A stretch of 24,457 nt of DNA. It comes from an uncultured Methanosarcinales archaeon (lineage in GTDB: Archaea; Nanobdellota; Nanobdellia; Woesearchaeales; CAYVYK01). Position 1 is the stretch's first letter; each line of letters begins with the position of its first letter. Made by a program: the position numbers and the translations under genes. The stretch lies in assembly GCA_964455675.1 (NCBI GenBank), contig CAYVYK010000007.1, positions 1 through 24,457 of the forward strand. Reading direction: 5' to 3'. Below are positions 6,386 to 8,004 of the stretch, piece after piece. Below the pieces are notes generated by a model, which saw nothing but the letters and a program-made list of their open reading frames with translations, did not search any database and was not told the DNA's origin.

Positions 6386-6626
6386 GAATGTCCTTTCAGC
6401 AGAGGCAGAGGTATGCGATCAGTGTCAACCATGGAAGGAGTCGCTCCGAGGGGAAGTTGCCGATGTCCGCCAAGAGCAATTGTCTCCAGTCCATACCAGT
6501 GTACTCCATACGGCGAAGGTGATGGCTTGCGGGGCGCGTGTTACATTACTCGTCTCCTTTCTGAGCCGTTTTTCGACTTTTTATTGGCTCGCTAAGATTT
6601 ATTTATCGTTTCTGTTCTTTTTTAAC

Positions 6627-6664
6627 GTTTTCCGTCTGTTTCCGGGCGTATTACGCTGTTTCCG
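6627..6664. promoter_or_regulatory. Three phased direct repeats (GTTTTCCG / TGTTTCCG / TGTTTCCG) ~240-280 nt upstream of the PEP-CTERM gene
   Basis: Repeat copies start at 6627, 6637 and 6657, giving 10- and 20-nt spacing (helical phasing). They lie in an AT-rich UP-like context. Confidence 0.35.
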
Positions 6665-7318
6665 TTGTTTTTTAGAGATTTTTCGTAGAGAACTATCTAC
6701 CATGAGAAGTCAGATATTCCGCGGGATATTTGCTAAACATCCCGTCTCCAGGGGTTTTCCCAGGTCCTACGTCAGTAACTGGATACCATTGCATTCATGC
6801 AACAGATTCCATGATCCTGACAACCCAGCCCATGCATCACTATGAGTGGAACCCAGATGGGTTTCAAGGTGTGCACAAGCACTGGAGGATGGCATTTCTT
6901 GCTGGTTGGGTTTACGTAACAAACTTCAAAGGGCTCATGCGAGCCATATCGTCGGTAATTGATACTACCCATATTAAGTACTACCTGCTAGTAGCGATTT
7001 CCTACTAGCATTTAAATATATCGGTTCACCAGGAACGCGTAGGCGTAGCCACGAATCCAGAGCCCCACAAATCAAGCAATAAAAACATTTGAGTTCGAGA
7101 TCCAAAAAATCCAAGTAATCTGATTCATAAACTTGGGCATAACTCGAAAATACTGAGAGATTATCAGGTATACGGTTGGTTTGGCTTTCGGCAAAAAGGA
7201 TCTACTCTCTTTGGATTATCTGCGGGAGGCTTCACAATTCACTTGTGTTTTTATCAAATCCATCTCAGTATTCATTTATTCTTAAGGACACCTCGGCGCT
7301 TCATTCACGGAAGACTTG

Positions 7319-7360
7319 CCTGATGTGCAGCATCAGGGTGGGGGACCTTGCAAGGGCCCC
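7319..7360. other. Two adjacent hairpins in the non-coding region
   Basis: CCTGATG-tgcag-CATCAGG (7319-7337) is a perfect 7-bp stem. GGGGACCTTGCAAGGGCCCC (7341-7360) is a near-perfect 20-nt palindrome. Confidence 0.4.
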
Positions 7361-8004
7361 TGAGAAAACCAGAGATTGGCCATTAACCCGTAATCTCGAA
7401 AAATTCTGGAGTTAAACCAGATAGGGGGTCCTGAATACTTGAGCAAGATGCCACGCGAGGATTGGCCACACCAATAAGCAACTGCATCCCCACATTAAAC
7501 ATGGATGTGCTTTACCGTGAATAACAGCACACCTTTTTGTTACCATTTTTCAGTACTCCTATTACCGTAAAGTTTATATAGTAGTAGCATTTTACTACCC
7601 ATTAGTTAATACATATCATGTGTTTGGGTGGGTTTTCCAACGGTTAAGATGCCTCAAGTGGCATGCTTACCGACGATCCGCACGGATCCTTTGAAGTCTC
7701 ATTTAACACCCATATATGATTCAGCAAACCATTGCTGCATCCAGCACTTGGCGCACACCACTCGTTCATACACACCGTGTATGAATTGATTGTTGTGACC
7801 ATCAAGGCCCGCACGAACCGTATCACTCGCTTGAAAGCGATTGATTGCGGAACGTCACTACCGGCCTTGGCCTGGAACACGGGAAAATAGGGTTTTCCCG
7901 CGGAATGGAGGTTTTCTTGTAGATGTTTCTCTCGACCAGCGTTGGTCGAACTTGGTAATACAAAGCTTATGAGCACGGAAACGCTCAATTCTGAGGAGCA
8001 CAGC

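Follow-up and report, generated by a model that had tools for sequence, protein, structure and literature searches.

Structured 5′ leaders and other cis-regulatory RNAs are the described systems closest to the element analyzed here, an AT-rich non-coding island of about 1.6 kb that separates two divergently transcribed gene arms in a 24,457-nt stretch of DNA (contig CAYVYK010000007.1 of assembly GCA_964455675.1, positions 1–24,457; hereafter the window). The island lies between a gene on the minus strand (5717–6385) and a gene on the plus strand (8005–8232). We found that it is organized as a mirror-symmetric non-coding unit of ~1.35 kb, in which two inverted modules of ~340 nt (the arms) stand on either side of a 670-nt spacer (the core). 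With moderate confidence, we class this unit as either a regulatory module of structured non-coding type or an element with inverted repeats; it behaves most like a pair of long structured leaders and fits no Rfam family. As in structured leaders, a module lies directly upstream of a gene in the same orientation, several hairpins stand between conserved single-stranded patches, the stems are conserved by compensation, and a helix sequestering the Shine-Dalgarno sequence is predicted in the right copy. Unlike such leaders, the modules have no Rfam match and are present as two mirror-image copies at one locus; further, the left copy is 243 nt away from its gene, and a length of ~340 nt exceeds that of most leaders.

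Other known systems share parts of this arrangement. Invertons have inverted repeats around a promoter-sized, AT-rich segment between genes, as the island does. Their repeats are short, nearly identical and acted on by a site-specific recombinase, whereas the island arms are 340 nt long and 68% identical, and the scanned neighbors yielded no recombinase domain (not every small open reading frame, ORF, was scanned). Elements with terminal inverted repeats, of the foldback type or similar to miniature inverted-repeat transposable elements (MITEs), resemble the island in the arm-core-arm layout, the non-coding character, a composition unlike that of the host and the richness in hairpins. The terminal repeats of bacterial elements are typically 10–40 nt long. 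In contrast, the island arms extend over ~340 nt at 68% identity with their hairpins kept, and we found no target-site duplication, second copy or cognate transposase. Putative mobile promoters are upstream segments of 50–100 nt with at least 80% identity that precede non-homologous genes (Matus-Garcia et al., 2012; PMC3488235). The island likewise presents homologous non-coding upstream sequence before non-homologous genes in one genome; however, its arms are ~340 nt long, 68% identical, inverted and adjacent, fall below the published identity threshold, and add a structural conservation that is not required for that class. Lastly, the dyads at the inner edges of the arms contain GTAG/CTAC and are thus similar to the small intergenic palindromes of the REP/BIME type, which are GTAG- or CGTC-tagged (PMC3733652). 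REPs are high-copy elements of 20–40 nt, whereas the inner-edge dyads were seen only inside the island within 24 kb and the conserved unit is ten times longer. GTAGTAG itself is present once in the island and once elsewhere in the window.

The inverted repeat was detected by short-word self-comparison, in which the three longest inverted matches (6716/7896, 6948/7667 and 6923/7688) shared one symmetry center. When inverted 7-mers were counted by anti-diagonal, the band near 7312 contained 19 matches and the next band 7; a band of 19 was reached in 0 of 500 dinucleotide shuffles and in 1 of 500 block shuffles. Gap-lenient alignment of 6600–6990 with the reverse complement of 7640–8000 gave 215 identical columns out of 314 (68%), and the longest perfect runs between the arms were 11 nt. 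The score of this alignment was 25.5–27, compared with 2.7–3.5 ± 1.7 in full or 25-nt block shuffles (z about 13–14); the score of 25.5 stood against 2.8 ± 1.6. Further, the highest score of this type over 608 real segments of the window was 13, and control alignments (direct, reversed only or complemented only) scored 1–3.5. The unit consists of the following parts.

~6638–6977, minus strand: left arm (IR-L); it matches the plus strand of the right arm in this orientation, which is also its best-folding orientation.
6978–7644, no strand: AT-rich, non-palindromic core of ~670 nt, GC 0.34–0.46, with a local GC peak at the central hairpins.
~7645–7982, plus strand: right arm (IR-R); hairpin-rich, ending 10 nt before the Shine-Dalgarno sequence of the right gene.

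The two halves of the core are dissimilar (z 0.6), as are the outer flanks (z -0.8 and -1.2), and the similarity is therefore confined to the arms. A giant palindrome over the whole island was ruled out by the dissimilar core halves. A duplication reaching into the flanking genes was likewise ruled out, as neither the flanks nor the flanking genes of the two arms show mutual similarity. The possibility that the arms are protein paralogues was also rejected: tblastx gave E values no better than 0.68, BLASTP returned nothing for the two longest ORFs, and the indels are not multiples of three. A faint resemblance visible by eye (GCTCA..AGGAG..ATG.AAC) between 7983–8010 and the minus strand at ~6570–6541 is not significant. 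Under stringent local scoring, the similarity of the arms is barely seen or absent. As judged from their alignment, the arms are an old, indel-rich duplication. As an inverted pair at a divergent gene junction, the copies are oriented alike with respect to the gene arm that adjoins each of them.

Hairpins recur at corresponding positions in the two arms, as follows.

6932–6945, minus strand: H5 left, GGCUC GCAU GAGCC, between the perfectly conserved patches TTACCGACGAT and CCTTTGAAGT.
7675–7688, plus strand: H5 right, GAUCC GCAC GGAUC, with three double changes relative to the left copy.
6789–6802, minus strand: H3 left, UUGCA UGAA UGCAA; on the minus strand the stem is longer by two G-U pairs and one C-G pair.
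7827–7840, plus strand: H3 right, UCGCU UGAA AGCGA, with two compensatory pairs relative to the left copy and an identical loop.
6722–6744, minus strand: H2 left, CGGGAU ... AUCCCG.
7880–7900, plus strand: H2 right, CGGGAAAA UAGGG UUUUCCCG (in DNA, CGGGAAAA/TTTTCCCG), with one double change; listed at 7881–7899 in an earlier note on this DNA.
6850–6863, minus strand: H4 left, AACCC AUCU GGGUU; its position is equivalent to that of the right copy within ~3–5 nt.
7765–7785, plus strand: H4 right, a 9-bp stem (UUCAUACAC/GUGUAUGAA).
6714–6836, minus strand: H3-H2 domain, left copy, consisting of a long stem in tiers with a UGAA loop, a second hairpin and a CGCGGAAU tail.
7794–7908, plus strand: right copy of the H3-H2 domain, from which the covariance models R1, R2 and R3 were made.

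H2, H3 and H5 occupy exactly equivalent positions relative to the conserved anchors, whereas their stems differ, with six compensatory pairs in total. When neutral divergence of the right arm at 32% was simulated (substitutions only, indels ignored), the probability of at least six compensatory pairs was 5e-5, and that of at least three hairpins with a compensatory pair was 5.5e-4. We regard this statistic as strong but not formal evidence. It is based on two paralogous copies in one genome and is thus paralogue rather than phylogenetic evidence. The comparison indicates that the arms have been under structural constraint, with hairpins kept through compensatory change. The two copies of the H3-H2 domain are predicted to fold alike, as a tiered stem plus a hairpin, with energies of -42.8 and -43.1 kcal/mol. 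With model R1, which was built with structure from the right copy only, the full-length left copy on the expected strand was the best independent match (14.1 bits, E about 0.19). The sequence-only version of the same alignment gave the left copy 4.0 bits and ranked it below chance matches, and the structure therefore contributes about 10 bits.

The predicted folds of the left arm depend on the strand. The whole IR-L has a fold z of -2.91 on the minus (gene-ward) strand and -1.25 on the plus strand, and the left H3-H2 domain has a minimum free energy of -43.1 kcal/mol (z -2.9) on the minus strand compared with -28.8 kcal/mol (z -1.0) on the plus strand, because several of its pairs are G-U. The mirrored model R3, representing the minus strand of the right arm, found only a 39-nt fragment of the left arm (8.8 bits). 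The fold z of the core is about -1.4 on both strands. This asymmetry of the predicted folds is what would be expected of an RNA read toward the flanking genes, not of a palindrome acting at the DNA level.

We tentatively favor the interpretation that the arms are a pair of paralogous, structured modules of RNA that are read outward from the AT-rich core and serve both gene arms as long 5′ leaders. Promoters in the core (6978–7644) would fire outward, and each module would be transcribed toward its own flanking genes as a long structured 5′ leader or a co-oriented cis-regulatory RNA, such that the first ~340 nt of the outward transcripts would be the structured modules. The conserved hairpins H2, H3, H5 and probably H4, together with the conserved single-stranded patches (UUACCGACGAU, CCUUUGAAGU, CGCGGAAU, GUAGAU..UUCUCU and CGGAAAC), would provide a common post-transcriptional input to both gene arms, for example through the binding of one protein or RNA, or through control of stability or translation. 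We infer transcription, the promoter positions, the regulatory effect and the identity of any partner from the sequence. The right module would reach the Shine-Dalgarno sequence of the gene at 8005, which a conserved CU-rich patch is predicted to sequester. The two sites concerned are given below.

7925–7930, plus strand: GUUUCU, within the patch GUAGAU..UUCUCU conserved between the arms; predicted partner of the Shine-Dalgarno sequence of the right gene.
7993–7998, plus strand: GAGGAG, the Shine-Dalgarno sequence, described as perfect, of the first gene of the right arm, whose start codon is at 8005–8007.

According to the ensemble prediction, GAGGAG is paired with GUUUCU and its probability of being unpaired is about 0.02. 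Sequestration was also considered as a feature common to both arms and was discarded, as it is predicted on the right only. In a bolder and doubtful version of the proposal, the arms would represent, as its sole known members, a so far undescribed class of large (~340 nt) structured bacterial RNAs, and the mirror pair would let one trans-acting factor co-regulate two divergent clusters.

Several results weigh against paired RNA leaders. Watson-Crick pairs abound in the right arm, which folds about as well on one strand as on the other (z -4.27 for plus, -4.14 for minus); in the left arm, the inner half shows no significant structure (z about -0.5). The predicted sequestration of the Shine-Dalgarno sequence has no counterpart on the left, where arm and gene are 243 nt apart. 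Promoter-like sites are present at chance frequency (3, compared with 3.1 expected); one of them, TTTACT-17-TATCAT, is in the core at 7591–7619 on the plus strand. An nhmmer search with one arm as the query missed the other arm, and the homology of the arms therefore rests on gap-lenient alignment. Further, the pattern was already known when the statistics on hairpins and compensation were devised, and the model match of the left copy is not significant alone. All window proteins that were looked up are singletons at 90% identity, the nearest non-self homologues of the vault-like protein encoded in the left gene arm are 38–46% identical, and no relative or third copy of the arm that could supply independent covariation was found in the window or the scanned collections. 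Lastly, the low GC content of the whole unit is unexplained by the leader model.

The composition of the island is indeed distinct, as the earlier note had pointed out. In 500-nt windows, GC is 0.44–0.45 over 6500–8000 and 0.55–0.62 on both sides; at a resolution of 100 nt, the drop extends from ~6550 to ~8050, with minima of 0.34–0.37. The core of this drop (6560–7990) has a GC of 0.442, compared with 0.55–0.62 in genes and 0.52–0.61 in the eight other gaps of the window that lack a long ORF (94–759 nt), and the low-GC island is thus an outlier even among the gene-poor stretches of the window. A second gene-poor stretch of ~0.9 kb in the left arm of genes (4803–5716) contains a single gene call of 62 amino acids (5242–5430, minus strand) and has a normal GC of 0.56–0.57; what sets the island apart is therefore its low GC and not its length as a gap. 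To the left of the inverted repeat, the intergenic sequence is divided as follows.

6386–6559, minus strand: proximal upstream region of the left gene; GC-normal (0.546), outside the inverted repeat, without similarity to the right flank.
6560–6637, no strand: T-rich tract, GC 0.35–0.40.
6629–6670: weak TTTCCGTCTG array with a 10-nt period, which starts at the right end of the T-rich tract and enters the outer end of IR-L.

According to the strongest rival, which we consider somewhat doubtful, the island is what is left of a non-autonomous mobile element whose terminal inverted repeats were very long, or else consists of two inverted copies of a structured repeat family, in either case inserted into a divergent intergenic region that was originally short. 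The hairpins would then reflect past mobility needs or family history, not present function at the locus. Such a relic would account for the coincidence of the low-GC island with the inverted-repeat unit (~6560/6638 to 7982/7990) and for the order of arm, unique core and arm, which is that of an element with terminal inverted repeats; further, the 174 nt beside the left gene are GC-normal, as expected of the original upstream region. The compensatory differences could predate the arrival at this locus, having accumulated while the repeat family was active. However, no relic of a transposase or recombinase was found in six frames or in the scanned neighbors, and a typical transposase gene would not fit into the 670-nt core. 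As the ends of the arms are fuzzy, no target-site duplication is definable; the last firm anchors are at 6638 and 7982, and no direct repeat is evident just outside the fuzzy ends. Nor are the arms two classical MITEs, as they lack terminal repeats of their own (end-to-end inverted alignment within each arm scored 6.0 and 6.5, compared with a null of 7.6 ± 1.2–1.3). There is no further copy of an arm within the 24-kb window, and we found no extended match in phage, plasmid, metagenome, genome and viral collections. Hairpins kept by double substitutions and a strand asymmetry that depends on G-U pairs would also be unexpected of a decaying relic. Matches to the pattern TTACCGACGAT-N(5-25)-CCTTTGAAGT in 20 metagenome and 14 genome stretches (0 viral contigs), from collections that do not include the source genome, were set aside as chance, as they showed no extended similarity.

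We next consider coding capacity. Over 6480–7800, the GC content by codon position is flat, with a spread of 0.03–0.16, compared with 0.34–0.48 in the left gene (windows 5760–6359); the spread in the right-arm genes is 0.24–0.54 (windows 8520–9359), and third codon positions of the real genes of the window have a GC of 0.8–0.9. Six-frame comparison of the island with Pfam gave two sub-threshold matches only, to FliT (14.3 bits, E 0.074) and MASE2 (17.1 bits, E 0.0059), which both fall far short of the curated cut-offs and are not transposases, and NCBIfam gave nothing. Decayed protein-coding genes or unannotated small genes in the island are thus very improbable, in our view. Two candidates can be named for them: a product of 65 amino acids at 6811–7008 on the plus strand, which the gene caller predicted on two assemblies, and an ORF of 132 amino acids at 7644–8042 on the minus strand, the longest in the island and somewhat long for AT-rich sequence. 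However, the former is a singleton cluster, the latter has 0 homologues among 1.84 billion representative proteins in an exhaustive HMMER search, and the arms have no protein-level similarity. The earlier note had stated that the island holds no credible ORF, which these results bear out, as they do its view that both gene arms are transcribed away from the island (5717–6385 minus, 8005–8232 plus); a pseudogene remnant, which it had named beforehand as the finding that would speak against it, was not detected by the six-frame, codon-position and homology searches. It had also proposed covariance-model and tRNA scans for a non-coding RNA (ncRNA). No match to any Rfam 15 family (riboswitches, large ncRNAs and vault RNA included) was obtained at gathering thresholds over the whole window, and at E values up to 10 only two matches were obtained on 6200–8200, at 15–16 bits and far below threshold. 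ARAGORN found 0 tRNA or tmRNA genes in the window.

Short dyads and repeats are also present in the island, in addition to the hairpins shared by the arms.

6963–7010, no strand: TACTACC/TAGTAG cluster at the inner edge of IR-L, consisting of TACTACCCAT (6963–6972), TACTACC at 6980, and a 9-bp dyad TGCTAGTAG-N7-CTACTAGCA (6986–7010).
7319–7337 and 7341–7360, no strand: two adjacent GC-rich hairpins, a 7-bp stem and a 20-nt palindrome, beside the symmetry center at ~7311–7315; neither has a U run after it.
7374–7382 and 7460–7468, plus strand: GATTGGCCA repeat, found nowhere else in the window (0.21 expected; two copies were reached in 1 of 100 shuffles).
7579–7602, no strand: TAGTAGTAG / TACTACCCAT cluster ~40–60 nt inside the inner edge of IR-R, with a dyad GTAGTA-N6-TACTAC (7581–7598) and TACTACCCAT (7593–7602); it resembles the left cluster in direct orientation.
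7932–7949, plus strand: hairpin TCGACCA GCGT TGGTCGA, in the right arm only (7933–7950 in the earlier note).

TACTACCCAT occurs exactly twice in the window (6963 and 7593), and with at most one mismatch at three sites (the third, at 5243, is outside the island), compared with 0.23 expected. The Logan assemblies of two runs break in the core of the island, with contigs ending at 7304 and 7599 and another starting at 7572, and no sequence variant was seen; the breaks are likely due to low coverage of AT-rich DNA or to a graph branch at the GTAGTA..TACTAC dyad. The island contains 26 perfect hairpins of at least 5 bp, compared with 12.9 ± 3.6 in dinucleotide shuffles, and five of at least 7 bp, compared with 0.9. 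IR-R alone contains ten of at least 5 bp, compared with 2.7 expected. However, counts of 26 and 4 in these two classes are also reached elsewhere in the window by pieces of 1.6 kb, and hairpin density alone, which lies at the upper end of what is seen locally, is therefore weak evidence. All the hairpins and repeats named in the earlier note exist, at most 1–3 nt from where it had placed them, but it had treated them and the TACTACCCAT repeat as separate oddities and missed the ~340-nt inverted repeat that organizes the island. Of the four candidates that it had left open, two are still alive in sharper form, namely the divergent control region or ncRNA and the decayed insertion, whereas a replication origin is unsupported.

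Some of these short elements are possible protein sites, and the island might be an ordinary large divergent promoter or regulatory region of DNA, AT-rich for melting and for the binding of nucleoid-associated proteins and transcription factors. In this explanation, which we consider unlikely, upstream DNA duplicated long ago (promoter propagation) would make up the inverted repeat, which would act at the DNA level if at all, and the hairpins would be incidental. The location at the strand switch, with both gene arms leaving, is in accordance with it, as are the TACTAC/TAGTAG clusters at both inner arm edges, the two copies of GATTGGCCA, a phased TTTCCG array and a hairpin density little higher than elsewhere in the window; further, upstream regions duplicated before unrelated genes are documented (PMC3488235). 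On the other hand, palindromic operators conserve half-sites, whereas the stems here co-vary and differ between hairpins, and the cross-arm model gains about 10 bits from structure, on one strand only. The sigma-70-like sites are at chance frequency, and 1.6 kb far exceeds the needs of a promoter. No sigma-54 site was found in the island, and a sigma-54 promoter upstream of the PEP-CTERM gene was rejected accordingly.

An origin of replication, chromosomal or of an integrated element, would also be AT-rich, situated at a strand switch and rich in hairpins, and the cumulative GC skew has a local, V-shaped minimum near 7750–8250. The change in skew over 24 kb is, however, inseparable from the switch of gene strand. 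DnaA boxes (TTATCCACA-like) are at chance level in the island: there are 0 with at most one mismatch, and 6 with at most two mismatches, compared with 5.3 ± 2.2 expected. There are no iterons, as Tandem Repeats Finder reported only the weak 10-nt array at 6629–6670 (4.3 copies, 65% match), and no dnaA, dnaN, rep or par genes were recognized among the scanned neighbors. We therefore consider an origin highly unlikely.

Paired leaders of RNA, the interpretation that we favor, would place the following two genes downstream of the modules.

5717–6385, minus strand: left flanking gene (from the ORF list), encoding a secreted protein of 222 amino acids with a PEP-CTERM-like C-terminus (..LPEPATAILLAIGLLAVRRR); it has a weak NCBIfam match to the PEP-CTERM tail and is also predicted as a gene on Logan contigs.
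8005–8232, plus strand: right flanking gene, encoding 75 amino acids with a hydrophobic N-terminus and a tail rich in proline and lysine.

The sequence of the window is also present on short Logan contigs from two runs, with 99.99–100% identity. The left gene arm (minus strand) contains a major vault protein (MVP) homologue at 24–2843, several small ORFs and the PEP-CTERM-like secreted protein. The right gene arm (plus strand) starts with the 75-amino-acid gene at 8005 and continues for ~16 kb with mostly uncharacterized genes, including those for two paralogous zinc-ribbon proteins, a VWA protein and OmpA-like proteins. Neither domain scans of window proteins nor blastn against phage and plasmid collections revealed a function related to phages, plasmids, defence, replication or transposition. 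The product of 24–2843 is a homologue of 939 amino acids of the eukaryotic major vault protein (Pfam MVP_shoulder, 6.4e-18; also Vault_3 and Band_7), with more than 1100 bacterial homologues at 38–46% identity (Myxococcota, Planctomycetota and candidate phyla). Bacterial MVP homologues have been described (bioRxiv 10.1101/872010). Two loci of homologues of the vault-like protein were inspected and had 0 neighbors in common with the window, and a scan of genome contigs with the vault-like protein as the query gave no match. The vault-like gene is 3.5 kb from the island. By analogy with the vault RNAs of eukaryotes, the arm RNAs might be imagined to associate with the vault-like protein; this is a bolder idea, which nothing supports.

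In the right gene arm, the tandem genes at 15706–16389 and 16399–17127 (plus strand) are paralogous, ~52% identical by tblastx, and their products have a zinc ribbon at the N-terminus, a single predicted membrane span and a C-terminal domain that is conserved. The sole hint of a regulator near the island is the product of 9120–9662 (plus strand, 180 amino acids). Its first ~60 residues show weak similarity to receiver domains of response regulators (Pfam E 0.002; in NCBIfam, 1e-5 to hybrid kinases), and its C-terminal half is cysteine-rich and unrelated. Further, an element of ~40 nt, GTGACGCACGGTGCGCCACAACAGCAAACGAGCAAACAA, is present on the plus strand in four copies (12262–12283, 12829–12867, 13127–13166 and 13928–13966; chance expectation 0). 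Its first 22 nt are exact in three copies, two copies are identical over all 39 nt, and a near-perfect palindrome, GTGACGCAC-G-GTGCG(C/T)CAC, is part of it. Of the four copies, at least three (12262, 13127 and 13928) lie ~20–50 nt upstream of start codons of the right arm, and none is in the island. From these positions, the element looks like a shared operator or 5′-untranslated-region element for internal promoters of the right-arm cluster.

If the island is the relic of a mobile element with terminal repeats of 340 nt, it represents a type of element unusual for bacteria, with limited wider consequence. If, on the other hand, the arms are functional RNAs, the locus provides a rare internal control, in which two old paralogues in one genome show compensatory evolution of their hairpins, and a candidate RNA family could be proposed from a lineage without sequenced relatives. 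The mirror arrangement would then be a compact means of placing two opposed gene clusters under one post-transcriptional signal. As these clusters consist almost entirely of uncharacterized proteins beside a vault-protein homologue, such a regulatory handle would be a practical entry point to them.

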